Assembly: GCA_035686325.1 (NCBI GenBank)
Contig: DASRZN010000196.1
Coordinates: 2,006-66,005 of the forward strand
DNA length: 64,000 bases
DNA from: Lysobacteraceae bacterium
GTDB taxonomy: Bacteria > Pseudomonadota > Gammaproteobacteria > Xanthomonadales > Xanthomonadaceae
Direction of reading: 5' to 3'
The translations under genes and the position numbers were made by a program. Of the stretch, positions 40,035 to 63,720 are shown in pieces; positions within the stretch are counted from its first letter, which is position 1; each line of letters begins with the position of its first letter. The notes beneath the pieces were generated by a model. That model had not been told where the DNA came from. It made no database searches and was given only the letters and a program-made list of their open reading frames with translations.

Positions 40035-40152
40035 ACCATGCAGCCGGCAAAATGTGCCGGCCGTCGCAAAAACGGGCGTACGGGGTGCACCGGACCGCCG
40101 GACTGCCGACAATCCGGCGACTGGCGCAGGGGGGCGCCGGTAAGGAGTCCTT

Positions 40153-42084: not shown

Positions 42085-42119
42085 CCGCGTCGCTCGCCGC
42101 GCGGACGCCGCCGACCGGG

Positions 42120-42458
<339 letters not shown>

Positions 42459-42664
42459 TCACGCGGTCTCCATGTCGGCTCCCAGCAGGATACCGTGCCG
42501 GTGGCGCGCGCCGCCGGCGGCCAACGCACGGCGGGCTGTGTTCCAATACGGGCCCGCACGCCGGCCATCGGACTAGTCCGACGGTTCGGCGCGGCCCCCG
42601 CCGACGGCGCGGGTCCGGGACGCTGGCGATGCTGTAGGCCACCACGCGCGACCACGGAGCCGCC

Positions 42665-43003
42665 ATGAACGCCACCGTCAGCACCCCCCTCAGCACGAGC
42701 AGCACCTCGTTGACCAGCATGATCGACCTCGGCCACATCGACGAACTCGCCCGCCGCCTGAGCAACCTGGTGCCGCCGGCAATGCGCACGAACGGCTTCG
42801 AGGACCTGCGCGAGGAGCTGCAGGAGAACTTCAAGTCGGTGCTGCAGGCCGGGCTGGCCAAGCTCGACCTGGTGACCCGCGAGGAGTTCGAGGTGCAGCG
42901 CGCGGTACTGTTGCGCACCCGCGAGAAGCTGGACGCGCTGCAGCGCACCGTCGCCGAACTGGAAGGCGCGCGGGCGGCGCAAGCCGCACCCCCGCAAGCC
43001 TGA
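42665..43003 (+). CDS. ubiK: Ubiquinone biosynthesis accessory factor UbiK (YqiC/BMFP family)
   Basis: 112 aa. Contains the coiled-coil [27 protein letters not shown], typical of this family. Confidence 0.8.
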
Positions 43004-43014
43004 GCCCCGCCGCC

Positions 43015-44526
43015 ATGGGCCTGGCCCTCGTGCACAGCCGTGCACGCGCCGGCGTGCGCGCGCCCGCCGTGCGCGTCGAGGTGTACCTCGGCGGCGGCCT
43101 GCCGTCGATGTCGATCGTCGGCCTGCCGGAAGCCGCCGTGCGCGAAGCCAAGGACCGCGTGCGGGCAGCGATCCAGTGCGCGCAGTTCGAATTCCCCGCG
43201 CGCCGCATCACGGTCAACCTGGCGCCGGCCGACCTGCCCAAGGACGGCGGCCGCTTCGACCTGCCGATCGCGCTCGGCATCCTCGCCGCCAGCGGCCAGG
43301 TGCCGGCCGAGGCGTTGCGCGACATCGAGTTCCTCGGCGAACTCGGCCTGACCGGCGAGCTGCGCCCGGTGGACGGCGTGCTGCCCGCGGCGCTGGCGGC
43401 GGCGGCCGAGGGCCGCCGGCTGGTGGTGCCGACCGCCAACGGCGCCGAGGCCGCGCTGCCGCGCGACGGCCAGGCGAGTACCGCCCGCACCCTGCTGGAG
43501 GTCTGCGCCGCGCTCGACGGCCGGCGCACGCTGCCGGACGCGGAAGCACCCGCGCCCCGCGCCGCGCACGTCCCCGACCTCGTCGACGTGCGCGGCCAGC
43601 TGCACGCGCGCCGCGCGCTCGAGATCGCCGCGGCCGGCGGCCACCACCTGCTGCTGGTCGGGCCGCCCGGCTGCGGCAAGACCCTGCTCGCCTCGCGCTT
43701 GCCGGGGCTGCTGCCGCCGCTGGGCGAGGCCGAGGCGCTGGAAACCGCGACCATCGCCTCGATCAGCGGCCGCGGCCTGGACCCGGCGCGCTGGCGCGCG
43801 CGGCCCTACCGCGCGCCGCACCACACCGCCAGCGCGGTCGCCCTGGTCGGCGGCGGCAGCCAGCCGCGGCCCGGGGAGATCTCGCTGGCGCACAACGGCG
43901 TGCTGTTCCTCGACGAATTGCCGGAGTGGGGCCGGCAGGCGCTGGAGGTGCTGCGCGAGCCGCTGGAATCCGGCGTGGTCACCATCTCGCGCGCGGCGCG
44001 GCAATGCGAATTCCCGGCGCGTTTCCAGCTGGTCGCGGCGATGAATCCCTGTCCCTGCGGCTGGGCGGGCGATCCCTCCGGTCGCTGCCGCTGCAGTGCC
44101 GACCTGATCCAGCGCTATCGCGCGCGCATTTCCGGGCCGCTGCTGGACCGCATCGATTTGCAGGTGGACGTGCCGCGGCTGCCGCCGGCCGAACTGCGCC
44201 CCGACGCGCCCGCCGGCGAACCCAGCGCGACGGTGCGCGCGCGCGTGGTCGCGGCGCGCGCGCTGCAACAGGCGCGCGCCAGCCGCTGCAACGCGCACCT
44301 GGACCAGGCGGCGACCCTGGCGCACTGCCGGCTGGCGCCGTCCGACCAGGCCCTGCTCGAACGCGCGATCGACGGCCTGCAGCTGTCGGCGCGCGCGATG
44401 CACCGGATCCTGCGCGTCGCCCGCACCATCGCCGACCTCGCCGGCAGCGAGGCGATCGCCACCGCGCACCTGACCGAAGCCCTCGGCTACCGCCGCCTGG
44501 ATCGCCGGCAGCCGCTCGCGGCCTGA
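43015..44526 (+). CDS. comM: YifB/ComM Mg-chelatase-like ATPase
   Basis: 503 aa. A Lon-like N-domain is followed by an AAA+ domain ([21 protein letters not shown]) and a C-terminal zinc motif (CPCG...C.C). Confidence 0.92.
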
Positions 44527-44595
44527 CACCGGCGCCCGAGCGAGCGCTCCCGACCGCTGCCCGATGGCGCGAATCCCTGCGCCTTCCGCCGGCCC

Positions 44596-44655
44596 GTAGA
44601 GCGGAGCTTGCTCCGCTATCGTGTGCCTCCCACGGCGGAGCAAGCTCCGCTCTAC
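44596..44655. repeat. Inverted pair of REP-like elements (BIME-like)
   Basis: gtagagcggagcttgctccgc (44596..44616) and its exact reverse complement gcggagcaagctccgctctac (44635..44655), separated by 18 nt. Confidence 0.85.
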
Positions 44656-44672
44656 GCAATGTCTTGCACGCA

Positions 44673-45440
44673 ATGCCCGGATTTTTGCCCACCGACGCGC
44701 TGCCCATCCTGTACGAGGACGAACGCCTCGCGGTCGTCGCCAAGCCGGCCGGGCTGATGGTCCACGACAGCGCGCTGGCGCGCGGCGAAACCGACTTCGC
44801 CGCCGACCGCCTGCGCGCGCAGTTCGCCAGGCCGGTGTTCCTGGTGCACCGCCTGGACCGCGCCACCAGCGGCTGCCTGCTGGTCGCCTTCGACCGCGAC
44901 GCCGCCTCCGCGCTGGGCAAGGCGCTGATGGCCAGCGCGCCGCCGGTCGATCCGGCCGCGCGCGCGGCCGCGGTGCGCGCCGCGTTCGACAAGGAATACC
45001 TGGCGGTCTGCCGCGGCTGGCCGGAGCCGGCGTTCGTCATCGACCATCCGCTGGACGGCGGCCCCGGCAAGCCGTTGAAGAAGGAAGCGGTGACCGCCTT
45101 CGAGCGACTTGCCACCTGCGAGCTCTCCCTGCCCTCGGCCGGCTTTCCGACCTCCCGTTACGCGCTGCTGCGCGCGCGCCCGCTCACCGGCCGCTTTCGC
45201 CAGATCCGCCGACACCTCAAGCACGCCTCGCACCACCTGGTCGGCGACAGCAGCCACGGCGACGGCCGCCACAACCGCAACTTCCGCATGCTCGGCATCC
45301 ACCGCATGCTGCTGCACGCCTGGCGGCTGCGCTTCCCGCACCCGGCGACGGGCGCCACGGTGGTGGTGACCGCGCCGCCCGACGACGCCTTCCGGCGCGC
45401 GCTCGCGCTGTTCGACGCCGTGCCGCCCGACCTCGCCTGA
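44673..45440 (+). CDS. truC: tRNA pseudouridine(65) synthase TruC
   Basis: 255 aa. Contains ILYEDERLAVVAKPAG, HRLDRATSG, KEYLAVCRGW, and RQIRRHLKH..HHLVGDS.HGDGR.NR, which aligns by eye with E. coli TruC. Confidence 0.88.
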   Translation: MPGFLPTDALPILYEDERLAVVAKPAGLMVHDSALARGETDFAADRLRAQFARPVFLVHRLDRATSGCLLVAFDRDAASALGKALMASAPPVDPAARAAAVRAAFDKEYLAVCRGWPEPAFVIDHPLDGGPGKPLKKEAVTAFERLATCELSLPSAGFPTSRYALLRARPLTGRFRQIRRHLKHASHHLVGDSSHGDGRHNRNFRMLGIHRMLLHAWRLRFPHPATGATVVVTAPPDDAFRRALALFDAVPPDLA

Positions 45441-45488
45441 CCCGCGCGACCCATTCCGCATGCGCGCGCCGCCCCTACAATCCCCCGC

Positions 45489-45908
45489 ATGCTGCAGGTC
45501 TCGCCCACGCTGGAGATCCCCGACGCGGAGCTGGTCGAGCGTTTCGTACGCGCGGCCGGCCCCGGCGGGCAGAACGTCAACAAGGTTGCGACCGCGGTCG
45601 AGTTGCGCTTCGACGTGGCAGGCTCGCCGTCGCTTCCCGAGGCGGTGCGTGCGCGGCTGCTCGCCCGCCGCGACCGCCGCCTGACCGACGCCGGCACCCT
45701 GGTGATCAGCGCCCAGCGCTTCCGCACCCAGGAACGCAATCGCGAGGACGCGCGCGAACGCCTGGCCGCCTTCATCGCCGCCGGCCTGCGCGCGCCGACC
45801 CCGCGCATCGCCACCCGCCCCACCCGCGCCTCCAGGCAGCGCCGGCTGGAGGCCAAGCGCGGCCGCAGCACGCTCAAGCGCGAGCGGACCCGTCGCGACT
45901 GGGACTGA
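45489..45908 (+). CDS. arfB: Alternative ribosome-rescue factor ArfB (peptidyl-tRNA hydrolase, YaeJ)
   Basis: 139 aa with the GGQ motif (GPGGQNVNKVATAV) and a basic C-terminal tail. Confidence 0.92.
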   Translation: MLQVSPTLEIPDAELVERFVRAAGPGGQNVNKVATAVELRFDVAGSPSLPEAVRARLLARRDRRLTDAGTLVISAQRFRTQERNREDARERLAAFIAAGLRAPTPRIATRPTRASRQRRLEAKRGRSTLKRERTRRDWD

Positions 45909-45911
45909 CGC

Positions 45912-46538
45912 ATGGCCGATGCCCCCCTGCAACCCGTCCTCCCGCCGCCGGGATCGATCCTGCCGCTGCCGCCCCATGCCCCCCGCGTTCCGCCCAACCG
46001 ATTCACCCGCTGGGTCGGGCGCACGGTGCTGCGGCTGGGCGGTTGGCGCATGGTCGGGGCGTTTCCCGACATCCCGAAGCTGGTCCTGATCGGCGCGCCG
46101 CACTCGTCGAACTGGGACGGGATCTGGGGCTTCGCCGCCAAGCTCGCGCTCGGGCTGGACATTCGCATTCTCGGCAAGCACCAGCTGTTCTGGTGGCCGC
46201 TCGGGGTGCTGCTGCGCCGGCTCGGCGTGATCTCGGTGGACCGCACCGCGGCGCAGGGCGTGGTCGAGCAGGCGGCGGCGCTGATTGTCAGTGCCGAACA
46301 ATTTTGGTTCGGTTTGGCCCCTGAGGGCACACGCAAGCCGGTCGAGCACTGGAAACCGGGGTTCTGGAAGATCGCCCACGCCGCTGGCGTGCCGGTGCTG
46401 CCGGCCTACTTCCACTACCCGGACAAGGTCATCGGGATCGGACCGCCGTTCGACCTCGGGGACGACATGGCCGCCGACATCGCCCGCATCCGCGCCTGGT
46501 ACCGCCCGTGGCAGGGGCGCCACCACGGCACGCCCTGA
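45912..46538 (+). CDS. Lysophospholipid acyltransferase family protein (PlsC-like)
   Basis: 208 aa. A variant of the HX4D block (APHSSNWD) and the PEGTR motif (APEGTRKP) are present. Confidence 0.75.
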   Translation: MADAPLQPVLPPPGSILPLPPHAPRVPPNRFTRWVGRTVLRLGGWRMVGAFPDIPKLVLIGAPHSSNWDGIWGFAAKLALGLDIRILGKHQLFWWPLGVLLRRLGVISVDRTAAQGVVEQAAALIVSAEQFWFGLAPEGTRKPVEHWKPGFWKIAHAAGVPVLPAYFHYPDKVIGIGPPFDLGDDMAADIARIRAWYRPWQGRHHGTP

Positions 46539-46653: not shown

Positions 46654-46735
46654 GGGACGCGCAGCGCCGGCGGCGGCCCGGGGAACCGACGAGACGAGGC
46701 CGCCATCCCGCGGCCCGTCGGCGTCCCGGTTTTTT
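46654..46735 (+). terminator. GC-rich compound stem-loop ending in a T6 run
   Basis: gggacgc (46654..46660) pairs with gcgtccc (46721..46727), with internal stems ggcggcc/ggccgcc and ccgacg/cgtcgg. It is followed by gg and T6 (46730..46735), abutting the stop of the convergent phosphatase gene. Confidence 0.4.
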
Positions 46736-47727
46736 CATTCGGTCGCGGCGCCCGCAGTGGCCGCGGCGGCAGGGGGAGCAGCTTGGAGCCGGTCCAGCAT
46801 CGCACGGGTTTCCGCGTTGTCGGGGTTGCGCGCCAGCGCCTGCCGGAACAGGGCGATCGCGTCGGCATCGCGCCCCTGCCGGTGGCGTGCGTGGGCGAGG
46901 CCCTCGATCGCCGCGCCGTCGCCCGGCCGCGCCCGCAGCACCGCCTCGAAGCCGGCCGCGGCCTGGTCGGGTTCGCCGTCGCGCAGGGCGCAGTAGGCCA
47001 GGCCGGTGCGCGACTCGAGGTCGCCGGCATCCAGCGCCAGCGCGCGGCTGAAGCGTTCACGCGCCTGCGCGATCTCCCCTTTGCGGTAGTGCGCCCATCC
47101 GGCAAGCTGCAGCGCCCCCGGGCCGGGTGCGCGGATCGTCGCCAGCTCGGACAGCGCCGCGTCGTAGCGGCCGTCCATGAAGGCGAAGTTGGCGCGGTCC
47201 AGCGCCTGGGTGTCGGCCGGACGGGTGCCGGCCACGCTGCCGCGGTAGTCGGCGGTGGCGCCGAACTGGGCCAGGTATTTCTGCACGTTCTTGGCCCGGT
47301 GCAGGCCGAGGTAGCAGTGGATGTAGGCGGTGCCTTCGGCGGCCAGCGCGGCCTGCGCGGCGGCCCGGGAGTTCTTGATGTAGTCCGCGCCGAAGGACCG
47401 GCCGAGGATGCTCGCCATGGGGAAGTTGCGCACCTGCATCCCGTGGCGCGCGGCGCGTTCGCGTTCCTGCGCGAGCAGCACCTTCTCGTAGGGGATTGCG
47501 GGATCGAGCAGGCTGATGATGGTGGTCACGCCGCGCTTTTCGAGCGCGACGAAGTCGGCCTCGACGGGGTAGGGGCCGAACAGGACGCGGTCGGACATCT
47601 GGCTGCGTTCGGCGCGCCAGGGCTGCACGAACAGGCTCGCCGGGTGCAGCAGCACCCAGACGCCGAACGCGCCGCCGGCGAGGCCGAGCAGCAGGATCGC
47701 GACCAGCCAGGACTTGCGGATACGCAT
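46735..47727 (-). CDS. Membrane-anchored dual-specificity/tyrosine phosphatase-like domain (CX5R) fused to TPR repeats
   Basis: Last 330 aa of track ORF 46735..48699. N-terminal TM (WLVAILLLGLAGGAFGVWVLL). P-loop IHCYLGLHRA fits HCxxGxxR. The C-terminal 150 aa are TPR-like. Confidence 0.75.
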   Translation of the reverse strand: MRIRKSWLVAILLLGLAGGAFGVWVLLHPASLFVQPWRAERSQMSDRVLFGPYPVEADFVALEKRGVTTIISLLDPAIPYEKVLLAQERERAARHGMQVRNFPMASILGRSFGADYIKNSRAAAQAALAAEGTAYIHCYLGLHRAKNVQKYLAQFGATADYRGSVAGTRPADTQALDRANFAFMDGRYDAALSELATIRAPGPGALQLAGWAHYRKGEIAQARERFSRALALDAGDLESRTGLAYCALRDGEPDQAAAGFEAVLRARPGDGAAIEGLAHARHRQGRDADAIALFRQALARNPDNAETRAMLDRLQAAPPAAAATAGAATE

Positions 47728-47857
47728 CGCCTTTCCCCCGAAGGCATGGCGTGCATGGACGCCGGCAGCAGGTGTTATCCGGTCCCTCGCGGGACCTGTC
47801 AACGGCCGGACGTCGCCTGCGGGCGGAAGTCCGGCCAAAGCGAACCGAGGTGAGCCC

Positions 47858-48922
47858 GTGGATTTCCTGAGTGGTGCGGACGCGAAGCTGGTCTTCGCCT
47901 TCTGGCTGGGCGTGGTGGTGGTGTGCGTGGCGGTGATCATGCTGCTGGTGATCGTCGGCATGCGCCAGGCGATGCTGCGCAAGCAGCGCATCCACGACGA
48001 GGCGGCGCGGGTGTGGGGCGCGATCCTGTCGGACGTGGTGCACGGCAGCGCGGCCGACGTGCCCAGGCTCGCGCGCGCCGACGTGTCCGGCTTCATCGAG
48101 GCCTGGAACCAGCTGCACGCGGCGCTGCCGCCGGGCGGCTCGCCGCCGCTGCGGAAGGCGGCCGGGCAGGCCGGCGCCGGCGACCAGCTGCGCGCGATGC
48201 TGGATCGCGGCGGATTCCACGACCGGGTGGTCGCGATCATCGCGCTCGGCCACCTGCGCGAGCGCGACGACTTCGACCGCCTCGCCCGCTTCCTGCACGC
48301 GCCCAGCGCGATCGTGTCGCTGTCGGCGGCGCGCGCGCTGATGCAGGTCGACAACGAGCGCGCGGTCGCGCTGTTCGTGCCGCAGATCGTCGCCCGCCTC
48401 GACTGGTCGCAGAGCGGCGTCGCCGAGATCCTGCGCGAGGCCGACACCGCGATCGTGTCCAGGGAGCTGGGCGAAGTCGCCCTGCAGGCGAATGCCGAGG
48501 CCGCGCCGCGGCTGGTGCGCTTCCTCGCCGACATCAGCCCGACCGACGCCGCGCCGGTGATCCGCCGGATCCTGCAGTCCTCGCAGGACGAGCACCTGAT
48601 CTCGACCTGCCTGCAGGTGCTCGAGGACCCGCGCGACCTGCACCTGGTGCGCGGCCTGCTCGGCCGCGAGCGCTGGCACGTGCGCATGCACGCCGCCACC
48701 GCGCTCGGCCGGCTGGGCGAGAAGGACGACGAGTGGCTGCTGCTGCCGATGCTGTCCGACGCGCAGTGGTGGGTGCGCTACCGCGCGGCGCAGGCGCTGG
48801 TCCGCCTGTTCCGCCTGCACAGCCAGGATCCCGACTCGCTGCGCGGCGGCTTGGTCGATCCCTACGCGCGCGACATCCTCGACCAGGTGCTGGCCGAGCA
48901 ACGCCTTGGAGTCCAGCGATGA
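47858..48922 (+). CDS. Membrane-anchored HEAT-repeat protein (first gene of the candidate EPS operon)
   Basis: GTG at 47858, 6 nt after gaggtg. TM helix (LVFAFWLGVVVVCVAVIMLLVIV). It is followed by repeats of the (A)A.ALG.L/R..A..AL HEAT/PBS-lyase type (VVAIIALGHL, LSAARALMQV, ATALGRLG, WVRYRAAQAL). Confidence 0.7.
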   Translation: MDFLSGADAKLVFAFWLGVVVVCVAVIMLLVIVGMRQAMLRKQRIHDEAARVWGAILSDVVHGSAADVPRLARADVSGFIEAWNQLHAALPPGGSPPLRKAAGQAGAGDQLRAMLDRGGFHDRVVAIIALGHLRERDDFDRLARFLHAPSAIVSLSAARALMQVDNERAVALFVPQIVARLDWSQSGVAEILREADTAIVSRELGEVALQANAEAAPRLVRFLADISPTDAAPVIRRILQSSQDEHLISTCLQVLEDPRDLHLVRGLLGRERWHVRMHAATALGRLGEKDDEWLLLPMLSDAQWWVRYRAAQALVRLFRLHSQDPDSLRGGLVDPYARDILDQVLAEQRLGVQR

Positions 48923-50430
48923 ACCTGACCCTGCCGCCGGCGCTGGTCGCCGCCATGGACTGGATGCAGTGGGTGTTCTTCGCCTACTTCATCGGCCTCA
49001 ACATCGCCTACCTCTGCCTCAACTACGTCTCGGTGTTCGGCGTGATCCGCTACATGCGCGAGCACGGCGGACGCATGCTGCTGAAGAACTTCGCGCGCTA
49101 CCAGCCGCCGGTGACGATCATCGTCCCGGCCTACAACGAGGAACGCACGATCGTCTCCTCGATCCGCTCGCTGCTTCAGCTGGGCTACCCGGAGTACGAG
49201 GTGCTGGTCGTCAACGACGGCTCGACCGACCGCACCCTGGAGGCGGTGGTCGAGGCGTTCTCGCTGGTCGAGTTCCCGGAGGCCTACCGCCGCCGCCTGC
49301 CGACCGCGCCGGTGCGCCGGGTGTTCGCCTCGCCGACCCACGCCCGCGTGCGCCTGGTCGACAAGGAGAACGGCGGCAAGGCCGACGCCCTCAACGCCGG
49401 CATCAACTGCGCGCGCTACCCGCTGTTCTGCGTGGTCGACGCCGACTGCATCCTGCAGCACGACAGCCTGACCCGCGTGGTCCAGCCGTTCCTCGAGGAC
49501 TCGACCACGGTGGCCGCCGGCGGCGTGATCCGCGTGGTCAACGGCTGCCGCGTGGAGAACGGCCACCTGGCCAAGATCGATCTGCCGCGCAGCCTGCTGG
49601 CGATGTTCCAGACGGTCGAATACCTGCGCGCGTTCCTGTTCGGGCGCCTGGGCTGGTCGCCGATGAACGCGCTGCTGATCATCTCCGGCGCGTTCGGCGT
49701 GTTCTACAAGGAACGCGTGATCGCCGCCGGCGGTTACCGCACCGACACCGTCGGCGAGGACATGGACCTGGTGGTGCGCCTGCACCGCACCCTGCGCGAG
49801 GAGCGCCGCGCCTACCGGATCACCTTCGTCCCCGATCCGATCTGCTGGACCGAGGCGCCGGAGGACCTGCACTCGCTGCGCAGCCAGCGCGCGCGCTGGC
49901 AGCAGGGCCTGGTCGAGAGCCTGCTGCCGAACTGGCGGCTGATGTTCCGCCGCAACGGCGGCGCGGTCGGCTGGCTGGCCTTCCCCTTCATGTTCATCTT
50001 CGAATGCATCGGCCCGCTGATCGAAGTGGCCGGCTACGTCGCCGTGATTGTGCTGTTCATCGCCGGGCTGCTGTCGCCGGAGGCGTTCGGGGTGTTCCTG
50101 TTCGCCTCGGTCGGCCTGGGCGTGCTGCTGTCGGTCAACGCACTGTTGCTGGAGGAACTGTCGTTCCACCTGTACTCGCGCCCGTCGCAACAGTTGCGGC
50201 TGTTCATCGTCGCGATCCTGGAGAACTTCGGCTATCGCCAGCTGACCTCGGTCTGGCGCCTCCTCGGCATCTTCCGCTGGGTGTTCGGCGTGGGCGGCCG
50301 CAGCCGCCGCTGGGGCCGCATGCAACGGCACGCGAGCTGGCAACAGGACATGGACACGGTGCACGCCCCGGCGCTGGCCGACAAGCCGGTGCCCGCGGCG
50401 GCGCGACCGACCGAGACGAGTGGCGCGTGA
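48919..50430 (+). CDS. Processive family-2 glycosyltransferase (PgaC/NfrB/BcsA-like polysaccharide synthase core)
   Basis: 503 aa. N-terminal TMs, then IIVPAYNEE, VVNDGSTD, VVDADC, GEDMD and SQRARWQQG (QxxRW), followed by 3-4 C-terminal TMs. The ATG overlaps the upstream stop (ATGA). Confidence 0.88.
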   Translation: MNLTLPPALVAAMDWMQWVFFAYFIGLNIAYLCLNYVSVFGVIRYMREHGGRMLLKNFARYQPPVTIIVPAYNEERTIVSSIRSLLQLGYPEYEVLVVNDGSTDRTLEAVVEAFSLVEFPEAYRRRLPTAPVRRVFASPTHARVRLVDKENGGKADALNAGINCARYPLFCVVDADCILQHDSLTRVVQPFLEDSTTVAAGGVIRVVNGCRVENGHLAKIDLPRSLLAMFQTVEYLRAFLFGRLGWSPMNALLIISGAFGVFYKERVIAAGGYRTDTVGEDMDLVVRLHRTLREERRAYRITFVPDPICWTEAPEDLHSLRSQRARWQQGLVESLLPNWRLMFRRNGGAVGWLAFPFMFIFECIGPLIEVAGYVAVIVLFIAGLLSPEAFGVFLFASVGLGVLLSVNALLLEELSFHLYSRPSQQLRLFIVAILENFGYRQLTSVWRLLGIFRWVFGVGGRSRRWGRMQRHASWQQDMDTVHAPALADKPVPAAARPTETSGA

Positions 50431-50450
50431 CCTTGCACAGGAACCCTTAC

Positions 50451-51719
50451 ATGACCCGTTTGCCGCGCCCGCTGGCGCTCGCCGCCGCCATCGCCCTGTC
50501 CCCGGCGTTGCCCGCCTTCGCCCAGGAGGCGCCGCCGCAACCCGGCTTCGCCGAGCAGCTCGCCGAGGCGCGTGCGCTGGCGACGTCCGACCGCGAAGCC
50601 GAGGCGCTCGCCCGCTACGACGCGATGCTGCAGACCTCGCCCGGCAACAGCGACGTGCTGCTGGCGCGCGGCCGCACCTATGCGTGGATGGCGCGCTGGC
50701 CGGAGTCCGAGGCCGACCTGCTCGCGGTGACCGCGGCCAAGCCCGACTACGCGGACGCGTGGTCGGCGCTGGGCGACATGTACCTGTGGAGCGATCGGCC
50801 CGCGCAGGCGGTCGACGCCTACGCGCGGCGCGCCGCCCTGCAGCCGGATTCGCCGGACGCGCAGGTCGCGCTCGGCCGCGCGCAGCGCTCCGCCGGCGAC
50901 CTCGCCGGCGCGCGCGCGTCCTTCGAGGCGGCCGGCGCGCGCGGGCTGCCGGCGCAGGAAGTCGCCGACCTCGTCGCCACCCTGCAGCCGCGCACCGCCA
51001 ACCCGGACGTCACCGCCGGCGGCTACACGTGGTCGCTGCGCATCGGCGCCGAGCACACCACTTTCGACCCCGACCGCGACGCCTGGAACGAATCCAACGT
51101 CACCCTGCGCCGCCACTTCGCGCACGGCTCGCTGGGCCTGGAACTGCTGCACGCCGACCGCTTCGATCGCCGCGACACCGCGTGGGCGCTGGACGCCTAC
51201 GCGCCGCTGTGGTCGCGCGCCTACGCCAACCTGCGGTACCAGCACGGCGATCCGGACGGCCTGTTCGCGCGGCGCGCGTGGCGCGTCGAGGTGTTCCAGG
51301 GGGTGGGCAGCGGCTGGGAGCTGTCTGGCAGCTACGACCGCCTCGAATTCGGCGGCCCCGGCGTCGACATGTACGGCGTCGGCGTCGGCCGCTACCTCGG
51401 CAACTGGTATTACCGCTACCGCGCGCTGCACGTGCCGGGCGTGGGCGGCGGCAGCCTCAGCCACCGCGGCCTCGCGCGCTGGTACTACGCCGGCAACGCC
51501 GATGACTATCTGGAGATGAGTGCCGGCACCGGCCGCAGCGTCGACGAGGTCGGCGGCGCCACCGGCGAGACCATCCGTCGCAGCAGCGCCTCGCTGGGCG
51601 TGGCCTGGGTGCGCTTCCCGGATCCGCGCTGGGGCTTCAAGCTCGGTGCGAACATCGCCAACAACGTGGACGGCTTCGACGAGCGCGCGGTATCGGGCGC
51701 GCTCTACCTGCGCTGGTGA
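50451..51719 (+). CDS. Outer-membrane protein: N-terminal TPR region plus C-terminal beta-barrel (YaiO-family-like)
   Basis: 422 aa with signal peptide ...LPAFAQE and about 170 aa of TPR-like repeats. An alternating-hydrophobicity C-terminal half ends in the aromatic residue ...GALYLRW. The YaiO assignment is from memory of family and context. Confidence 0.65.
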   Translation: MTRLPRPLALAAAIALSPALPAFAQEAPPQPGFAEQLAEARALATSDREAEALARYDAMLQTSPGNSDVLLARGRTYAWMARWPESEADLLAVTAAKPDYADAWSALGDMYLWSDRPAQAVDAYARRAALQPDSPDAQVALGRAQRSAGDLAGARASFEAAGARGLPAQEVADLVATLQPRTANPDVTAGGYTWSLRIGAEHTTFDPDRDAWNESNVTLRRHFAHGSLGLELLHADRFDRRDTAWALDAYAPLWSRAYANLRYQHGDPDGLFARRAWRVEVFQGVGSGWELSGSYDRLEFGGPGVDMYGVGVGRYLGNWYYRYRALHVPGVGGGSLSHRGLARWYYAGNADDYLEMSAGTGRSVDEVGGATGETIRRSSASLGVAWVRFPDPRWGFKLGANIANNVDGFDERAVSGALYLRW

Positions 51720-54085
51720 CCGCGATGCGGCGGGACGACCGCGGCGCGTTCGCGCGTTTTCTCCCGCTGCTGCCGGCATTGCTGCTGGCAGAAGCCGCGC
51801 TCGGCCTGTGGTCGCTGTACGCGGGGTTGCCGCCGACGGGCGCCTCCGATGCCTGGCGCATCGGCGCGGCGTCCTTCGCCGGCGGCGTGTTGCTGCTGCT
51901 GCGCGCGTTGCCGCTGCTGTTCCTGCTCGCCTGGCCACTGCTGCGGCTGCGCGGCCCGCATGCGCGCGTGGTCGCGGTCGGCCTGCTGTTCACGGCCTGG
52001 CTGCTGGCGCGGATCGCGCTGGAGCAGTTCCACCTCGCCGCCCGGGTGCCGCTGGGCGCCGAACTGTTCGGCTATTCGTTCGCCGAATTGCGCACCACCG
52101 TCGGCGCCGGCGCGCGCACCGACGCGCTGGCCCTGGCCGGCTGGATCGTGCCGCCGGCGCTGCTGTGGCTGGCGCTGGGCCCACTGGCGCGCTGGCGACC
52201 GCGCACCCCGCGCGCGCTCGCATTCGCCCTGCCGCTGGCCTGCGCGCTGGCCTGGCTGCCGCCGCTGCAGCCGGCCGCCGCCGACTGGCCGCGCGAGGAC
52301 GCCTATGCCTTGGCGCTCGACAAGCCGGCGTACTTCGTCGCCGAGAACCTGCGCTGGCTGCGGCGCGACGATGCGCCTGCGCCCACGGCGGCCGCCGTCG
52401 CCAGTGCGCACGCGGGAACGGCCGACCCGCGCCATCCCTTCGTGCATGAGGAGCGCACGCCGGACGTGCTCGGCCCGCTGTTCGCCGACGGGGACGCGCC
52501 GCCGCACCTGGTGTTCGTGATCGTCGAGGGCCTCGGCCGGTCGTTCTCGGGACCGGACGCGACGCTCGGCAGCTTCACGCCGTTCCTCGACGACCTGGCG
52601 ACGCGCAGCCTCTATTTCGACAACTTCCTCGCCAACCAGGGGCGCACCTTCGGCGTGCTGCCCTCGCTGTTCGGGTCGCTGCCGTTCGGCGCGGAGGGTT
52701 ATGCCGCGCTCGGCGAACGGATGCCGCCGCACGCGGGGCTTCTGTCGCTGCTCGCCGCGCAGGGTTACAGCACGAGTTTCTACATCGGCACCGATGCCGA
52801 CTTCGACAACGAGCGGCTTTACCTGCAGCGGCAGGGCGTGCAGCGGATCGTCGACATCCACGACTTCGGCACGGGTTACCCGCGTAGCCCGGGCGGCGAC
52901 CTCAGCTGGGGCTACGCCGACGGCGAGCTGATCCGCCGCGTGCTGGCCGACGGCGCCCCGGCGGGCGACGCGCCCACGCTGCGGGTGATCCAGACGATCA
53001 GCATGCACACGCCCTACAGCTTCCCGGGCCAGGCCGCATACCACGCGCGCTTCGCGCAGCGGCTGGACGCGCTGGGCATCGCCGGCGACGCGCGCGCCGC
53101 CTACACGGCCTTCGCGCCGATCTACCAGTCAGTGCTGTACACCGACGACGCGCTGCGCGCCTTCTTCGAGGCCGAGGCGCGCACGCCGGCCTATGCCAAC
53201 ACGATCTACGTGGTGACCGGCGACCACCGCCTGCCTGAGCTGCCGATGGCCGATCGCATCGAGCGTTACCACGTGCCGCTGCTGATCCATTCGCCGCTGC
53301 TGAAGCAGCCGCGACGGATCCGCGCGGTGTCCTCGCACCTGGACGTGGCGCCCTCGCTGCTCGCGTTCCTCGCGCACCGCCACGGCTTGAAGCGGCCGGC
53401 GCGCGCGACGTGGCTCGGCAAGGGCCTGGACCTGTCGCCAGCGTTCCGCAACGTCCACGATATCCCGCTCAAGCAGAGCAAGACCCTGCTCACCGACTTC
53501 GTGTCCGGCGCGTGGTACCTCAACCGCGGTCAGCTCTACGCGTTGTCGGACGGCATGGCGATCGAGCCCGCGAACGACCCGACCACCGCGGCGCAGGTGG
53601 AAGCGCGCTTCGCCGCGTTCCGCGCCGCCAACGACCGCTTCGGCCGCGAAGGCGAGCTGTCGCCGGAAGGCGCCGCGCCGGCGCTGGTCGCCTACGTCGA
53701 ACCGCCGCCCGCGTCCGCCCAAGCGGACACCGTCGCCGGCCCACCCTTCGCCGTGCGCACGGTCGACCTGCCGCCGTCGACGCCGGCCGCGCGCATCCAG
53801 GTGTCCGCCCTGTTCGCCAACGACGCGGCGACGCCGAGCCCGACCTTCGTGCCGCTGGTGGTGGTGAGCGGCGAGGACGGCGTCGAAGTGGGCGAGTACT
53901 ACGGTGCCGCGCTGCAGCTGCCGGCGCATGCGCGGCGCGAGGTGCCGGTCGCGGTCGACCTCGGCAAGCTCGCGCCGGGCCGCTACTTCGTCGCGGTGAT
54001 TCCGTCGCATCCGGACACCGGCCACAGCCTCGGCGCCGGGCGCTACCGGATCCCGCTGCAGGTGCGCGCCGGGACCGCGCCATGA
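51716..54085 (+). CDS. LTA-synthase/OpgB/BcsG-type membrane phosphotransferase (alkaline-phosphatase/sulfatase superfamily) with extra C-terminal domain
   Basis: 789 aa. About 5 N-terminal TMs. The sulfatase-type core has VFVIVEGLGRS (metal ligand), GRTFGVLPSLF (putative Thr nucleophile) and VVTGDHR. The last 150 aa are a beta-rich extension. GTG overlaps the upstream TGA, and an alternative ATG lies at 51725. Confidence 0.8.
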   Translation: MTAMRRDDRGAFARFLPLLPALLLAEAALGLWSLYAGLPPTGASDAWRIGAASFAGGVLLLLRALPLLFLLAWPLLRLRGPHARVVAVGLLFTAWLLARIALEQFHLAARVPLGAELFGYSFAELRTTVGAGARTDALALAGWIVPPALLWLALGPLARWRPRTPRALAFALPLACALAWLPPLQPAAADWPREDAYALALDKPAYFVAENLRWLRRDDAPAPTAAAVASAHAGTADPRHPFVHEERTPDVLGPLFADGDAPPHLVFVIVEGLGRSFSGPDATLGSFTPFLDDLATRSLYFDNFLANQGRTFGVLPSLFGSLPFGAEGYAALGERMPPHAGLLSLLAAQGYSTSFYIGTDADFDNERLYLQRQGVQRIVDIHDFGTGYPRSPGGDLSWGYADGELIRRVLADGAPAGDAPTLRVIQTISMHTPYSFPGQAAYHARFAQRLDALGIAGDARAAYTAFAPIYQSVLYTDDALRAFFEAEARTPAYANTIYVVTGDHRLPELPMADRIERYHVPLLIHSPLLKQPRRIRAVSSHLDVAPSLLAFLAHRHGLKRPARATWLGKGLDLSPAFRNVHDIPLKQSKTLLTDFVSGAWYLNRGQLYALSDGMAIEPANDPTTAAQVEARFAAFRAANDRFGREGELSPEGAAPALVAYVEPPPASAQADTVAGPPFAVRTVDLPPSTPAARIQVSALFANDAATPSPTFVPLVVVSGEDGVEVGEYYGAALQLPAHARREVPVAVDLGKLAPGRYFVAVIPSHPDTGHSLGAGRYRIPLQVRAGTAP

Positions 54086-55023
54086 GGGCGCTGCTGCCGC
54101 TGCTGTTGGCGCTGGCGTTGGCCCTGCCGCTGCGCGCCGCGGCGGCGCCGGCGGCGCAAGACCGCGCGGTGTGGGTGTGGGAGCGCGACGCCTACGCGAT
54201 GGTCGAGTCCCGGACGATGGCCGACGAGGCCTTCGCCTTCCTGCGCGACAAGGACGTCAATGTGCTCTACCTGTACGCCGACGCGTGGCAGGGCCGCAAC
54301 CTGATCGTCGACCGACCCCAGGCCTATCGCCGCTTCATCGCGCGGGCCCACGACGATGGCTTCAAGGTCTACGCGCTGCTGGGATCGGCCTACCTGAAGA
54401 CCGAGGAATACGTGCTGCCGGGCCGGCTGGACGAGGCCGGCGCGATGTTCCAGCGCGTGCTCGACTACAACGCCGCCGCAGCGGAGGGCGAGCGCTTCGA
54501 CGGCGTGAACTACGACATCGAACCGCACCTGCTCGACGCCTGGGACACGCGCCGGACCGAACTGCTGCTCGGCTTCCTCGACATGACCGCCGACTTCGCG
54601 CGACGCAAGGCCGCGTCGGGCCAGCGGCTCGCGATCGGCCCGGCGATGCCGTTCTGGTGGGACAACATCCGGATCGAATGGCGCGGCAACACCCGCCCGA
54701 TGAGCGAGCATGTCGCCGACCTGACCGACTACGTCGCGCTGATGGACTACCGCAACGAAGCCGAAGGCAACGACGGCATCGTCGACCACGCCGAGGCGGA
54801 GATCGCCTACGCGGCGCGCGCCGGCCGCAAGGTGGTGATCGGCCTGGAGTTGAGCCCGAGCGAACCGCGCAAGGTCACGTTCAACCACCTGACCGAAGCC
54901 GACCTCGCGCGCGAGATGCGCCTGACCGAGCGCGCGCTGGGCGCCAGTCCCGCCTTCGGCGGTTTCGTGCTGCACCACTATCGCGGCTACGTCGAGTGGG
55001 TGCGCCGCCAGGCAGCCGAGTGA
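54082..55023 (+). CDS. Secreted TIM-barrel glycoside-hydrolase-like protein
   Basis: 313 aa with signal peptide MRALLPLLLALALALPLRAAAA. The alternating beta/alpha pattern includes FDGVNYDIEP and VVIGLE, reminiscent of GH114/PelA-N/PgaB-C-like folds. The ATG overlaps the upstream stop. Confidence 0.6.
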   Translation: MRALLPLLLALALALPLRAAAAPAAQDRAVWVWERDAYAMVESRTMADEAFAFLRDKDVNVLYLYADAWQGRNLIVDRPQAYRRFIARAHDDGFKVYALLGSAYLKTEEYVLPGRLDEAGAMFQRVLDYNAAAAEGERFDGVNYDIEPHLLDAWDTRRTELLLGFLDMTADFARRKAASGQRLAIGPAMPFWWDNIRIEWRGNTRPMSEHVADLTDYVALMDYRNEAEGNDGIVDHAEAEIAYAARAGRKVVIGLELSPSEPRKVTFNHLTEADLAREMRLTERALGASPAFGGFVLHHYRGYVEWVRRQAAE

Positions 55024-55038: not shown

Positions 55039-55968
55039 TCACTCCTTGCCGTTGCGCACCAGTTCCACGAACGCGCGCGCCTGCGGCGACAGCAGCTTGC
55101 CCTTGCGCATCACCACGCCGTAGCTGCGCGACGGGAACCACGGCGCCAGCGAACGCGCCGCCAAGCGCGCGCGATCGGCGTCGGTCAGGCAGATCGCGGT
55201 GACGATGGAGATGCCCAGGCCCATCGCCACGTACTGCTTGATCACCTCCCAGCCGCCGACCTCCAGCGCGACCGTGTACGGCACCCGGTTGCGCTGGAAC
55301 ACGAGGTCCACCATCCGGTAGGTGGTCAACCGGCGTGGCGGCAGGATCAGGCCATAGGGCGACAGGTCCTCGAGCGTGAGATCGGGCTTGCCGGCGAGCG
55401 GATGGTCGACCGGCGTGATCAGCATCGGCTCGAATTCGAAGATCGGCGCGTAATCCAGGTCCGGTGGCACGTCCAGCATCGAGCCCACCGCGAAGTCGAC
55501 CGCGTCCGAGCGCAGCAGGTTGAGCCCGCCGGCGCCGGTGACGTTGTGCAGCTTCAGCCGCACCTCCGGCTGGCGCTGGCGGAAGGCGTCGACGAAGCGC
55601 GGCAGCAGGTAGAGGATGGTCGAGCTGCCGGCGGCGATGTCCAGCTCGCCCACGTCCAGGCCGCTGACCTCGGCGCGAAACGCGGCGTCGAGCCCGTCGA
55701 TGCCCTCCACCAGCGGCCGTGCCAGCGCGTACAGCGCCTCGCCCTCGCGGGTCGGCGACAGCCGGCGGCCGCTGCGGTCAAGCAGGCGCACGCCGAACTC
55801 GCGCTCCAGCGCCTGCAGCTGCAGGGTCACCGCCGGCTGGCTGAGATACAGGGCCTCCGCCGCGCGCGACACCGACCCCAGCCGCACGACCTGGCAGAAG
55901 GCCCGCAGCGGCTTGAGGCGGTCGCCCTTGTAGGAGAAGCGCGGCGTAGCAGGTCGCCGGTCGGCCAT
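55039..55968 (-). CDS. LysR-family transcriptional regulator
   Basis: 309 aa from MADRRPATPRF. HTH segment (LRAFCQVVRLGSVSRAAEALYLSQPAVTLQLQALE) plus a LysR substrate-binding domain. Divergent from aceB. Confidence 0.9.
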   Translation of the reverse strand: MADRRPATPRFSYKGDRLKPLRAFCQVVRLGSVSRAAEALYLSQPAVTLQLQALEREFGVRLLDRSGRRLSPTREGEALYALARPLVEGIDGLDAAFRAEVSGLDVGELDIAAGSSTILYLLPRFVDAFRQRQPEVRLKLHNVTGAGGLNLLRSDAVDFAVGSMLDVPPDLDYAPIFEFEPMLITPVDHPLAGKPDLTLEDLSPYGLILPPRRLTTYRMVDLVFQRNRVPYTVALEVGGWEVIKQYVAMGLGISIVTAICLTDADRARLAARSLAPWFPSRSYGVVMRKGKLLSPQARAFVELVRNGKE

Positions 55969-55983
55969 GAGTGAAGGCCATCT

Positions 55984-56031
55984 ATAAGTTTGCCTTATGG
56001 TACCTATTGGCAAAACTGCTTTGTCAAATAG
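55984..56031. promoter_or_regulatory. LysR-type T-N11-A box and second imperfect palindrome in the LysR/aceB divergent region
   Basis: ATAAG-tttgc-CTTAT (55984..55998) is a perfect T-N11-A dyad. ctattggcaaaact/gctttgtcaaatag (56004..56031) is an imperfect dyad containing TTGTCA. The patch is locally AT-rich. Confidence 0.55.
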
Positions 56032-56079
56032 CAAGACGCCCCCGTACGGTCTGGGCTCCCACGGACAGGAGCCAGCGCC

Positions 56080-57744
<1,665 letters not shown>

Positions 57745-57793
57745 TTCGCGTTTCCCGCCACCGGCCACCGCCACCGACCGAAGGACCGCCACC

Positions 57794-59089
<1,296 letters not shown>

Positions 59090-62215: not shown

Positions 62216-62309
62216 CGAAAACGCTCCCCTGACTGTGCGACGGAGGCCGCACGCCCCGCTAAGGACGCGACAGGACGGCCCGTTTGTCAACTCCCGCCGC
62301 CCGGCGCGG

Positions 62310-63704: not shown

Positions 63705-63720
63705 GCAACCGGACGCCGGG

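Follow-up and report, generated by a model that had tools for sequence, protein, structure and literature searches.

The question raised by this locus, at positions 46735-55023 of a 64,000-nucleotide stretch of Lysobacteraceae DNA (the window), is whether its genes together build and export a polysaccharide and, if so, whether the system is already known. Our favored reading, held as likely, is that the operon codes for a machine of the synthase-dependent kind, in which a surface or extracellular polysaccharide is produced, tailored and exported. Throughout, the domain, motif and fold assignments are computed, and we infer all roles and all steps of the mechanism.

A GC3 frame plot together with translation gave six protein genes over this interval, one on the minus strand followed by five on the plus strand, and the source assembly's own gene calls contain the same set. 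The minus-strand gene g0 (46735-47727, 330 aa, CX5R-motif domain plus TPRs) is separated by a 130-bp intergenic region (47728-47857) from the divergent plus-strand operon, which comprises g1 (47858-48922, 354 aa, one TM helix plus HEAT repeats), g2 (48919-50430, 503 aa, a membrane-embedded GT2), g3 (50451-51719, 422 aa, signal peptide, TPR and YaiO-family beta-barrel), g4 (51716-54085, 789 aa, multi-TM, LtaS/OpgB-type) and g5 (54082-55023, 313 aa, a secreted (beta/alpha)8 barrel). With the domain searches added, all six genes and their domains were found where the original prediction had placed them. Translation also reproduced the tight junctions described there: the g1 stop overlaps the g2 start in ATGA at 48919-48922, a 20-nt gap (50431-50450) lies between g2 and g3, and ATGA recurs at 54082-54085 between g4 and g5. 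For the g3/g4 junction, the letters GTGA are present at 51716-51719, but the claimed overlap hinges on the choice of the g4 start. The source gene caller starts g4 at ATG 51725 (786 aa) rather than at GTG 51716, so the two genes either overlap by 4 nt or stand 5 nt apart.

The perfect dyad reported for the divergent region, GGTCCC-TCGC-GGGACC, does lie at 47781-47796. When the window was shuffled 100 times, 26 of the shuffles contained its pattern with one mismatch allowed, and the dyad occurred in none of the 88 loci examined, most of them related loci; it is not above chance expectation. The same region contains a second inverted repeat (47804-47814/47826-47836) and, upstream of the GTG start of g1, GAGGTGAG. 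Searches of 47728-47857 returned neither a sigma-70-like promoter nor an Rfam match. No sugar-nucleotide genes flank the operon in the window.

The central enzyme is g2, which matched Pfam GT2 families and Chitin_synth_2. Its motifs D100, D174xD176, E280-D281 and Q323xxR326W327 are invariant in 50 homologues, as is GED, the form that the ED motif takes here. The AF2 model (pLDDT 80.4) shows one long helix in its N-terminal part and four in its C-terminal part, and its top Foldseek matches, over about 490 columns, are hyaluronan synthases, BcsA and chitin synthases. The invariant motifs and the HAS/BcsA-like model fold agree with the earlier assignment of a processive-type GT2, and g2 is predicted to be a processive synthase-translocase. 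The closest curated families are PgaC/IcaA: g2 is 25% identical to E. coli PgaC (BLASTP) and scores 133.7 bits (E 8e-39) against the PgaC_IcaA model TIGR03937, whose cut-off is 422.3. Overall, g2 reaches the curated equivalog cut-off of none of the named synthases, and in public annotation it bears generic names only, such as 'glycosyltransferase family 2 protein'.

Immediately upstream, g1 combines one N-terminal TM helix with a HEAT-repeat (PBS-lyase-type) solenoid (HEAT_2, 57 bits in Pfam), and its profile matched only alphaRep/PBS-HEAT structures in the PDB. The g1 family comprises 360 clusters at 50% identity (E<=1e-30). A single TM near residue 17 is found in 135 of the 139 full-length representatives; in these 135 it is flanked by 0.8 K/R before and 4.9 K/R after, and for 131 of them the prediction places the HEAT domain in the cytoplasm.

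Downstream of the synthase, g3 scored 118.3 bits against TIGR04390 (cut-off 32) and 94 bits against PF19413 (cut-off 23.9). It has about 3-4 TPRs, with TPR_19 and TPR_14 above cut-off, an N-terminal signal peptide (MTRLPRPLALAAAIALSPALPAFA, followed by QE) and the C-terminal end ...YLRW. The proposed arrangement of signal peptide, TPR and beta-barrel ending in Trp is therefore borne out, and g3 is predicted from these sequence features to be the outer-membrane exporter of the polymer. Its YaiO barrel domain spans only about 230 residues, fewer than make up the barrels of PgaA, BcsC and AlgE.

For g4, a PF00884 Sulfatase/LtaS-type domain (96 bits) follows 4-5 hydrophobic segments at residues 11-185, as expected of an LtaS/OpgB-type enzyme behind an N-terminal multi-TM anchor. 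The top PDB match was 3lxq (1.7e-18), followed by LtaP and LtaS, and 16 homologues, Bacteroidota included, all keep residues E271, T311, W398, H431, D503 and H504, which supply the metal-binding Glu, the Thr nucleophile and the Asp-His pair expected of LtaS/OpgB phosphotransferases. Against the equivalogs, g4 scored 21.8 for OpgB (cut-off 572) and 19.1 for LtaS (cut-off 970); it is therefore a member of a superfamily branch and an orthologue of neither. An extra conserved C-terminal domain (about residues 560-789) occurs together with the LtaS domain in 16 loci. The LtaS-type catalytic residues, by analogy with OpgB and BcsG, suggest that the polysaccharide may be phospho-substituted, as originally proposed.

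The last gene, g5, has a signal peptide and a high-confidence (beta/alpha)8-barrel AF2 model (pLDDT 94.7), which upholds the description of a secreted TIM-barrel. Its family assignment is harder. No Pfam match was found even at E<=10, nor any NCBIfam match; there are 547 homologues, and none of the 120 listed carries a Pfam domain. The g5 profile matched PDB entry 10yv, 'putative GH97 from Cellulomonas fimi', at 2.3e-11, and Foldseek returned GH18 chitinases, Cwp19, the PgaB C-terminal domain and PslG with TM 0.5-0.6. The motif F139-D-G-x-N143-x-D145-x-E147-P-H149 is invariant, and within it D140-x-x-N143-x-D145-x-E147 partially resembles the GH18 DxxDxDxE motif. Comparison by hhalign with PgaB and with E. 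coli ChiA gave no significant match. Membership in GH18 or in the GH153 PgaB-C family was rejected, since the likeness is at the level of fold and partial motif and there is no sequence-profile membership. We regard g5 as predicted, from its model, to be glycoside-hydrolase-like and to belong to a family outside Pfam coverage, for which public annotation offers generic names only, e.g. 'hypothetical protein'.

The divergent g0 begins with MRIRK and a hydrophobic segment (residues 8-26), which together form an N-terminal signal-anchor, and it ends in TPRs (residues ~200-315, TPR families). Its HCYLGLHR (CX5R) motif is invariant in 3-4 homologues. The TM anchor, motif and TPRs were thus as described; the N-terminal domain had no Pfam or PDB sequence match, and the label 'phosphatase' is putative, taken from the HCX5R motif. 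Homologues of g0 adjoin the same cluster in three loci (L002, L046 and L008) in three different orientations, and g0 is an optional accessory of the cluster.

How much of this arrangement is general? We compared 82 loci chosen by GT2 similarity, a choice that makes the co-occurrence counts no unbiased census. The HEAT gene lies directly upstream of GT2 and co-directional with it in all 80 loci where this could be assessed, across many bacterial phyla, and the pair is also found on annotated plasmids of haloarchaea, Deinococcus and Planococcus. A YaiO-type barrel adjoins the pair in 60/82 loci. The 22 loci with no detectable barrel include diderm Gemmatimonadota as well as all four monoderm-lineage loci (Clostridia, Actinomycetota, Symbiobacteriaceae). 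In 57/82 loci the gene directly upstream encodes a stand-alone receiver; this holds for none of the Lysobacteraceae-type loci, the window included. Accessory genes are less frequent (LtaS-like in 19, glycosidase-like in 17 and CX5R-TPR in 4 of the 82). The window represents the Lysobacteraceae-type variant, which has no receiver gene and all three accessories. Its five-gene order is kept in 11 other complete loci (L003-L011, L046, L047) and one truncated contig, from Lysobacter, Thermomonas, Stenotrophomonas, Steroidobacteraceae and unclassified proteobacterial MAGs. The view of the cluster as one conserved unit stands for these relatives, but the core is the HEAT-GT2 pair. The LtaS-like, glycosidase-like and CX5R-TPR genes are additions particular to certain lineages; most loci do without g4, g5 and g0, so tailoring is no intrinsic part of the system. 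Overall, the operon is a local elaboration of a synthase module spread over bacteria and archaea, for which the databases searched hold no functional name.

These genes form the coherent set of synthase-dependent type that had been proposed: the processive GT2 and the TPR/beta-barrel protein are accompanied by two periplasmic enzymes, one LtaS-like and one glycosidase-like. In the mechanism that we favor, g2 would sit in the inner membrane, build the chain from a nucleotide sugar on the cytoplasmic side and pass it through its own transmembrane channel. With its one-helix anchor and cytoplasmic HEAT solenoid, g1 would be a co-subunit of the synthase, in most lineages probably coupling it to the stand-alone CheY-like receiver that the gene just upstream specifies. 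On the periplasmic side, g4, held by its membrane anchor, would take a phospho-head group from a phospholipid of the membrane, most likely glycerol phosphate from phosphatidylglycerol, and attach it to the chain. The TIM-barrel g5 would trim or release the chain, the TPR-YaiO barrel g3 would let it through the outer membrane, and g0 may serve as an optional periplasmic accessory.

The monomer is most likely, though on weak support, an N-acetyl-hexosamine. One hint is that the nearest curated relatives of g2 are PgaC/IcaA and that it matches Chitin_synth_2; another is the GH18-like D-x-x-N-x-D-x-E motif of g5 with its GH18/PgaB-like fold matches. A further hint comes from a haloarchaeal HEAT-GT2 pair (GT 44% identical), downstream of which lie glmS and a gene for a sugar-phosphate nucleotidyltransferase. 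Substrates probably vary between lineages, since in a Legionella relative the flanking genes encode a UDP-sugar dehydrogenase and an epimerase.

The most serious challenge to novelty comes from Xanthomonas. The cluster could be an orthologue of xagABCD with an inserted LtaS-like gene (g1=xagA, g2=xagB, g3=xagC, g5=xagD), which we put somewhat short of an even chance. This locus is a genetically studied biofilm locus regulated by quorum sensing and c-di-GMP/Clp (PMC3609779, PMC3364877, PMC9040811). It comes from a sister genus in the same family as our source organism, and its four co-transcribed genes are needed for biofilm and extracellular polysaccharide. As in our operon, the second gene, xagB (XC_3555), is a GT2 (COG1215/K20327; PMC3364877, PMC9040811, PMC3609779). 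The xagD-like Sfz4 (323-345 aa, annotated as a family-10 glycosyl hydrolase) fits g5 when likened by description, and the xagC-like Sfz3 has about 500 aa and no recognised domain (PMC8250860). xagA shares a GTG start with g1 (PMC3528676). The Agrilutibacter niabensis locus (L002) shows exactly HEAT-GT2-barrel-GH without the LtaS gene. Primer sequences are suggestive at the nucleotide level: a Xoc xagA primer matches the HEAT gene in frame at a homologous site (14-17/20 nt) in 11/11 loci tested, and one xagC primer matches the barrel gene on the expected strand (15/19 nt).

On the other hand, the 120 best matches of g2, and likewise those of a Stenotrophomonas GT2, include no Xanthomonas protein, in lists extending to 63% identity. 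The xagA primer peptides occur in none of 150 HEAT-family representatives, and the xag primer-peptide matches were no better than shuffled controls. GC3 of a fused deletion primer favours the other xagA frame, which gives a lipobox-looking ...SGIGAC; if that frame is right, the xagA nucleotide match is due to chance. A further difference is that the four xag genes have no reported LtaS-like member, which the operon here has. Clp/DSF control is reported for xagABCD, and g1 has no Clp box upstream (no TGTGA-N6-TCACA-like CRP/Clp site with up to 2 mismatches in 47728-47857), although the Clp operator is a trait of Xcc regulation and not of the protein family. The xag literature cited describes neither the polymer nor the protein domains of XagA, XagC and XagD. 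Orthology touches the novelty of the operon and not its mechanism, and is compatible with our preferred explanation. xagABCD may be the orthologous locus of the operon, in which case the present model would be the first domain-level mechanistic model for this plant-pathogen biofilm locus.

A different objection concerns the product, which could stay in the envelope as a phosphoglycerol-decorated, OPG-like periplasmic glycan (OpgH/OpgB logic) or an LTA-like, glycolipid-anchored glycerol-phosphate polymer, with no secreted exopolysaccharide. We think this improbable. In its favor, the curated families nearest to g4 are LtaS and the OpgB phosphoglycerol transferase, the barrel of g3 is small, and g2 weakly matches Pfam Glyco_transf_21, a family with lipid-glycosylating enzymes. 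In addition, xagB relatives are auto-annotated as beta-monoglucosyldiacylglycerol synthase (PMC4643136). Nevertheless, the QxxRW and GED motifs, C-terminal TM bundle and HAS/BcsA-like fold of g2 point to a polymer-translocating synthase; the operon encodes a TPR-barrel outer-membrane protein of a kind missing in the four monoderm-lineage loci; and no OpgG/D-like gene is present. Because g4 is missing from 63/82 loci, it cannot define the product. Least credible is that g2 is non-processive, adding single sugars to a lipid carrier or protein beside unrelated genes adjacent by accident: Foldseek also returned the non-polymerising PcManGT mannosyltransferase and small GT-A enzymes, and g2 falls below the curated cut-offs, but every processive motif is invariant in its homologues, its top full-length fold matches are processive synthases, and chance adjacency is excluded by the overlapping or near-abutting frames, the order kept across genera and the universal HEAT pairing.

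Of the routes by which bacteria make a biofilm matrix, the synthase-dependent ones (cellulose, PNAG, alginate, Pel, Nfr) are understood best, and each has taught its own way of synthase activation. The HEAT-GT2 module is abundant, in many bacterial phyla and haloarchaea. If HEAT is a regulatory co-subunit and the YaiO barrel a pore, many unnamed GT2 genes gain a function, the E. coli YaiO family gains a role, and activation from receiver through HEAT to synthase becomes testable. By analogy, the LtaS-like gene would add to pEtN-cellulose a second example from nature in which a secreted glycan receives a lipid-derived phospho-group. Going further, receiver-(YaiO barrel)-HEAT-GT2 could be an unrecognised phosphorelay-controlled synthase family of bacteria and archaea, with the HEAT solenoid as obligatory co-subunit and receiver dock and YaiO barrels as a new class of export pore; the Lysobacteraceae variant would have replaced receiver control and added an LtaS-type enzyme, yielding a glycerol-phosphate-decorated, teichoic-acid-like exopolysaccharide in a Gram-negative. 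This wider proposal is speculative, and we hold it with considerable doubt.

Compared with known systems, the operon carries the generic hallmarks of synthase-dependent secretion, namely a processive-motif GT2 and a gene for TPRs with an outer-membrane beta-barrel. The claim that it matches no characterised system holds against Pga, Bcs and Nfr, but the word 'undescribed' is uncertain given xagABCD. PgaABCD/IcaADBC, the poly-beta-1,6-GlcNAc system, shares a membrane-anchored partner, small in that system, whose translation is coupled to that of the synthase; it also shares an exporter that joins TPRs to a beta-barrel, and its PgaB C-terminal domain has a fold that the periplasmic TIM-barrel g5 resembles. 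In contrast to PgaD, the partner here is a 354-aa cytoplasmic HEAT solenoid encoded upstream of the synthase; in contrast to PgaA, the exporter pairs 3-4 TPRs with a YaiO barrel of ~230 residues; and the operon has an LtaS-like enzyme and no deacetylase domain (Pfam). PgaABCD orthology was rejected on the TIGR03937 score of g2 and on TIGR03939 (PgaA), at 18-25 against 366. E. coli PgaA, PgaB and PgaD had no significant BLASTP match to the operon proteins.

Bcs with BcsG (pEtN cellulose) likewise has a processive GT2 of BcsA-like fold, a periplasmic glycosidase and a TPR-barrel exporter. Bcs cellulose synthase was rejected for g2 (CelA model TIGR03030, 51.6 bits against 699.1; PRK11498, 19.9 against 992), and the operon has no Pfam match to PilZ or BcsB. 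BcsG shares the sulfatase-type (PF00884) fold of g4, for which lipid-derived phospho-decoration is proposed by analogy; by description, g4 is set apart as LtaS/OpgB type (Thr nucleophile in GRTF, GDH motif). With LtaS and OpgB (MdoB) themselves, g4 shares the N-terminal multi-TM anchor, PF00884 and residues equated with the LtaS active site, and differs in its extra ~230-residue C-terminal domain and its place within a GT2 synthase operon. NfrB-NfrA-YbcH, an E. coli exopolysaccharide system activated by c-di-GMP, has the same compact set of GT2, TPR/beta-barrel protein and periplasmic auxiliary, under signalling control. The operon has no MshEN domain and no YbcH homologue (BLASTP), g3 resembles NfrA in its TPRs only, and NfrAB-YbcH was rejected, with g2 aligning to NfrB over 124 aa only at 24%. 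The E. coli yai cluster lacks a HEAT partner as well as LtaS-like and GH-like genes, and its YaiO carries no TPR; what it has instead is a PIG-L-type deacetylase together with an acyltransferase. In K-12, yaiX is disrupted by IS2, and annotations of the yai cluster are putative only. The proximity of yaiO to yaiP noted earlier is correct, as yaiS, yaiP, yaiX and yaiO are co-directional. As in the operon, a GT2 gene is thus co-directional with a YaiO-family barrel gene, and YaiP and g2 share 29% identity in the catalytic domain as well as the ISGAxG and EDxDL motifs.

We defined the six genes of the cluster where a codon-position GC plot, direct translation and the gene calls of the source assembly agreed. 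All six genes of the original prediction were borne out: the divergent CX5R-TPR gene g0 (46735-47727, minus strand, 330 aa) and, on the plus strand, the HEAT gene g1 (47858-48922, 354 aa), the GT2 gene g2 (48919-50430, 503 aa), the TPR-YaiO barrel gene g3 (50451-51719, 422 aa), the LtaS-like gene g4 (51716-54085, 789 aa, or 786 aa from the ATG at 51725) and the glycosidase-like gene g5 (54082-55023, 313 aa). Translation also recovered every junction that had been predicted. The GTGA between g3 and g4 is present in the sequence; judging from the source gene calls, whether it forms an overlap hinges on the start codon chosen. The G+C content of the window is ~72%, so many of its long ORFs are spurious. 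The ORFs at 39688-44673 (minus), 44652-46526 (minus) and 55971-57797 (plus) were rejected as genes, having the wrong GC1/GC2/GC3 phase and no family matches. Rejected ORFs of this sort near the cluster reach 1661 aa and shadow real genes of the high-G+C DNA, either antisense or out of frame. Elsewhere in the window, the 2-kb bin at 26001-28000 has a G+C content of 78%, versus ~72% for the rest.

The cluster is flanked by unrelated housekeeping genes on both sides. Upstream lie Mg-chelatase-like, pseudouridine synthase, RF-1-domain and acyltransferase genes. Downstream, a LysR-family regulator gene (55039 onward, minus strand) is convergent with g5, their stops 15 bp apart, and is divergent from the genes for malate synthase (56080-57744) and isocitrate lyase (57794-59089). 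The region 55039-59089, a glyoxylate-shunt unit with no relation to the cluster, sets the downstream boundary. About 7-9 kb downstream of the cluster (window ~62300-64000; from L089:18229-20942) we observed mnmE/trmE and yidC, genes whose presence may place the window near the origin region of the chromosome. The g5 protein is 100% identical to one on a 155-kb 'Xanthomonadaceae bacterium' MAG contig, and the closest named relatives of g2, among the matches listed, belong to Lysobacter, Thermomonas, Luteimonas, Pseudoxanthomonas and Stenotrophomonas.

The g2 protein matches several GT2 families and Chitin_synth_2 in Pfam, and its nearest curated model is PgaC/IcaA, whose cut-off of 422 bits it misses with a score of 133.7. 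The motifs from which a processive GT2 had been predicted (D100, D174-x-D176, E280-D281 and Q323-x-x-R326-W327) proved invariant in 50 homologues, and the AlphaFold model (pLDDT 80.4) finds its closest structural matches in hyaluronan synthases, BcsA and chitin synthases, with ~490 columns aligned. These motifs and this fold are the grounds for regarding g2 as a processive synthase that translocates its own product. In the g1 protein, PBS-lyase-type HEAT repeats follow a single hydrophobic helix at the N-terminus. Its family comprises 360 clusters at 50% identity (E<=1e-30), and the helix starts near residue 17 in 135 of the 139 full-length representatives. Lys/Arg residues flanking this helix number 4.9 in the 15 residues after it versus 0.8 before, a bias which, under the positive-inside rule, would place the HEAT solenoid in the cytoplasm.

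How much of the cluster is conserved was quantified in 82 loci. A one-genome-per-species contig scan gave at least 590 loci with relatives of g2; the best 80 were retained, a Mesorhizobium plasmid locus and the window were added, and all ORFs were searched with family HMMs built for this analysis. Because the loci were picked by GT2 similarity, the following fractions are a property of the GT2 family of g2 and not of genomes at large. A co-directional HEAT gene lies immediately upstream of the GT2 gene in 80 of the 82 loci; in both HEAT-less loci the GT2 gene sits at a contig end, so the arrangement holds in 80/80 assessable loci. A YaiO-type barrel gene is beside the GT2 gene in 60/82 loci, its placement alternating between barrel-HEAT-GT2 and HEAT-GT2-barrel. 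No barrel was found in the four loci from monoderm lineages (Clostridia, Actinomycetota, Symbiobacteriaceae) or in several from Gemmatimonadota. Directly upstream, 57/82 loci carry a co-directional receiver-domain gene, mostly of 130-160 codons; stand-alone CheY-like receivers (range L012-L081 of the compared loci) include L027:7390-7776, L037:7371-7760, L081:3821-4213 and, on the Halosolutus plasmid, L094:2510-2881. Hybrid histidine kinase, Hpt or GGDEF genes often lie near the receiver-bearing units.

The accessory genes are much rarer beside the GT2 gene: LtaS-like genes in 19/82 loci, g5-like genes in 17/82, and the g0-like domain in 4/82, in three different orientations. The complete order of the window is retained in L003-L011, L046 and L047, while L002 is without the LtaS gene and L022 without g5. 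None of the loci with the layout of the window has a receiver gene. What is conserved is the HEAT-GT2 synthase core, to which a YaiO barrel and a receiver are usually added; the window cluster is a derived Lysobacteraceae-type variant whose accessories are the LtaS-like, glycosidase-like and CX5R-TPR genes. The original prediction was right about the kind of system and too specific about the five-gene set.

The core also occurs on plasmids. The Mesorhizobium plasmid carries HK-RR-RR-YaiO-HEAT-GT2-Hpt, a Legionella plasmid UDP-sugar dehydrogenase-epimerase-YaiO-HEAT-GT2-epimerase, a Deinococcus plasmid TPR-HEAT-GT and a Planococcus plasmid hypothetical-HEAT-GT. Three haloarchaeal plasmids likewise have the receiver upstream of the HEAT-GT2 unit: those of Salinirubellus and Haloarcula read RR-HEAT-GT2, and that of Halosolutus gelatinilyticus reads RR-hypothetical-HEAT-GT2 (the pair at L094:5585-8559, with a GT 44% identical to g2), after which come a sugar-phosphate nucleotidyltransferase gene and glmS. 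The last two genes are absent beside the bacterial loci. Within Xanthomonadales (protein matches P0244, P0251, P0257 and P0259), the Stenotrophomonas sp. SY1 GT2 shares 79-82% identity with its counterparts in Dyella and Rhodanobacter (Rhodanobacteraceae) and only ~64% with the GT2s of Lysobacter and the window, which suggests that the cluster moved horizontally in this order.

The g3 protein ends in Trp and combines a signal peptide with 3-4 TPRs and a YaiO-family barrel that scores above curated cut-offs. The N-terminal part of g4 contains 4-5 hydrophobic segments; the protein also has a sulfatase-fold domain whose best solved relatives are VP1736, LtaP and LtaS. Its residues E271, T311, W398, H431, D503 and H504, which we take to be LtaS E255, T300, W354, H416, D475 and H476, are invariant in 16 homologues, Bacteroidota included, and the catalytic set is complete. 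A C-terminal domain of ~230 residues (residues ~560-789; window 53400-54085) travels with the LtaS domain in 16/19 LtaS-bearing loci; it has no Pfam match and is possibly a carbohydrate-binding or Ig-like module. The g5 protein carries a signal peptide, and neither Pfam nor NCBIfam gave a match for it, even at E<=10; its profile matched one solved structure, a putative GH97 from Cellulomonas fimi (2.3e-11). The protein is modelled (pLDDT 94.7) as a (beta/alpha)8 barrel similar, at TM 0.5-0.6, to GH18 chitinases, Cwp19, PslG and the C-terminal domain of PgaB, with a partial motif and fold that are GH18-like. Sequence-level kinship of g5 to PgaB or E. coli ChiA found no support, the profile comparisons not being significant. 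The divergent g0 protein has a signal-anchor, C-terminal TPRs and an invariant HCYLGLHR motif. This motif agrees with the predicted phosphatase, the Pfam and PDB sequence searches with the N-terminal domain gave no match, and the identity is at present a motif-level guess.

Between g0 and g1, the perfect dyad at 47781-47796 was rejected as regulatory evidence, since its frequency is at chance level and it is not conserved in related loci. Upstream of g1 we found no sigma-70 promoter, riboswitch or Clp box. A second inverted repeat at 47804-47836 (GGCCGGACGTC / GAAGTCCGGCC; 11-nt arms, 91% complementary, 11-nt loop) sits directly upstream of the g1 ribosome-binding site and could be a 5'-UTR hairpin.

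For the mechanism, domain, motif and fold assignments are tool results, and from here on we infer roles. The g2 synthase would polymerise the chain and translocate its own product. Universal pairing, translational coupling and the predicted cytoplasmic solenoid point to g1 as a co-subunit of the synthase. The stand-alone receiver directly upstream in most lineages suggests that the solenoid could be the entry point of a phosphorelay input; the lineage of the window has no upstream receiver gene. OpgB acts on osmoregulated glucans and BcsG on cellulose, and by this analogy the g4 domain predicted to face the periplasm would move a phospho-head group, most likely glycerol phosphate, from a phospholipid onto the nascent chain. 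The TIM-barrel g5 may shorten or free chains in the manner of BcsZ, PslG and the C-terminal domain of PgaB, and the TPR-YaiO barrel g3 would carry the chain out. An N-acetyl-hexosamine polymer is weakly favoured as the product, given the PgaC/IcaA/chitin-synthase affinities of g2, the GH18-like features of g5 and the glmS context in one archaeon, Halosolutus, which hints that the synthase uses UDP-GlcNAc.

The main rival reading is that the cluster is an orthologue of Xanthomonas xagABCD, a locus already named genetically. This locus is needed for biofilm formation and extracellular polysaccharide, and is repressed by DSF signalling and Clp, a repression lifted by c-di-GMP (PMC3609779, PMC3528676, PMC3364877, PMC9040811, PMC4643136, PMC8250860). 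Its second gene, xagB (XC_3555), encodes a COG1215 GT2 (PMC3364877, PMC9040811, PMC3609779), and xagD-like proteins appear in the FeOB stalk literature as glycosyl-hydrolase-like proteins of ~330 aa (PMC8250860). The reported gene content fits the four-gene form of L002. When the published Xoc xagA-D primers (PMC3609779 Table S1) were used as probes, those for xagA and xagC gave suggestive nucleotide matches in related loci, but these failed peptide-level and primer-pair controls. A co-linear mapping of the primers by eye was rejected, as the same tests equalled shuffles and partly pointed to 'wrong' genes. Two metagenome scans with the primers yielded no matches and then six random ones, and none of the primer peptides occurs in 150 HEAT-family representatives. 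Xanthomonas is absent from the best 120 matches of two GT2 searches reaching down to 63% identity, from the matches listed for the window GT2, g5 and the Stenotrophomonas GT2, and from the best 80 of the at least 590 scanned loci; the protein-cluster member names inspected for xag were all generic. We put the orthology at somewhat under an even chance. A defence-system reading, whose sole support was a weak HEAT/ARM match in PADLOC, was dropped.

We found no paper connecting YaiO, HEAT proteins and GT2 synthases in the literature searched. Tested against the features that define Pga, Bcs and Nfr, the cluster is none of the three, in line with the predicted mismatch with characterised systems. 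A distant analogue is the E. coli K-12 cluster at 380069-384616 (L088:4070-8617), with putative annotations only, where yaiS (deacetylase), yaiP (GT2), yaiX (an acyltransferase pseudogene interrupted by IS2) and yaiO (encoding an outer-membrane barrel) share one direction and YaiP is 29% identical to g2. It resembles a decayed, distantly analogous GT2-plus-YaiO polysaccharide cluster. The HEAT-GT2-YaiO cluster of the window adds a new form to synthase-dependent polysaccharide secretion; its partner protein and pore type are unusual for such systems, and it is both widely distributed and unannotated.
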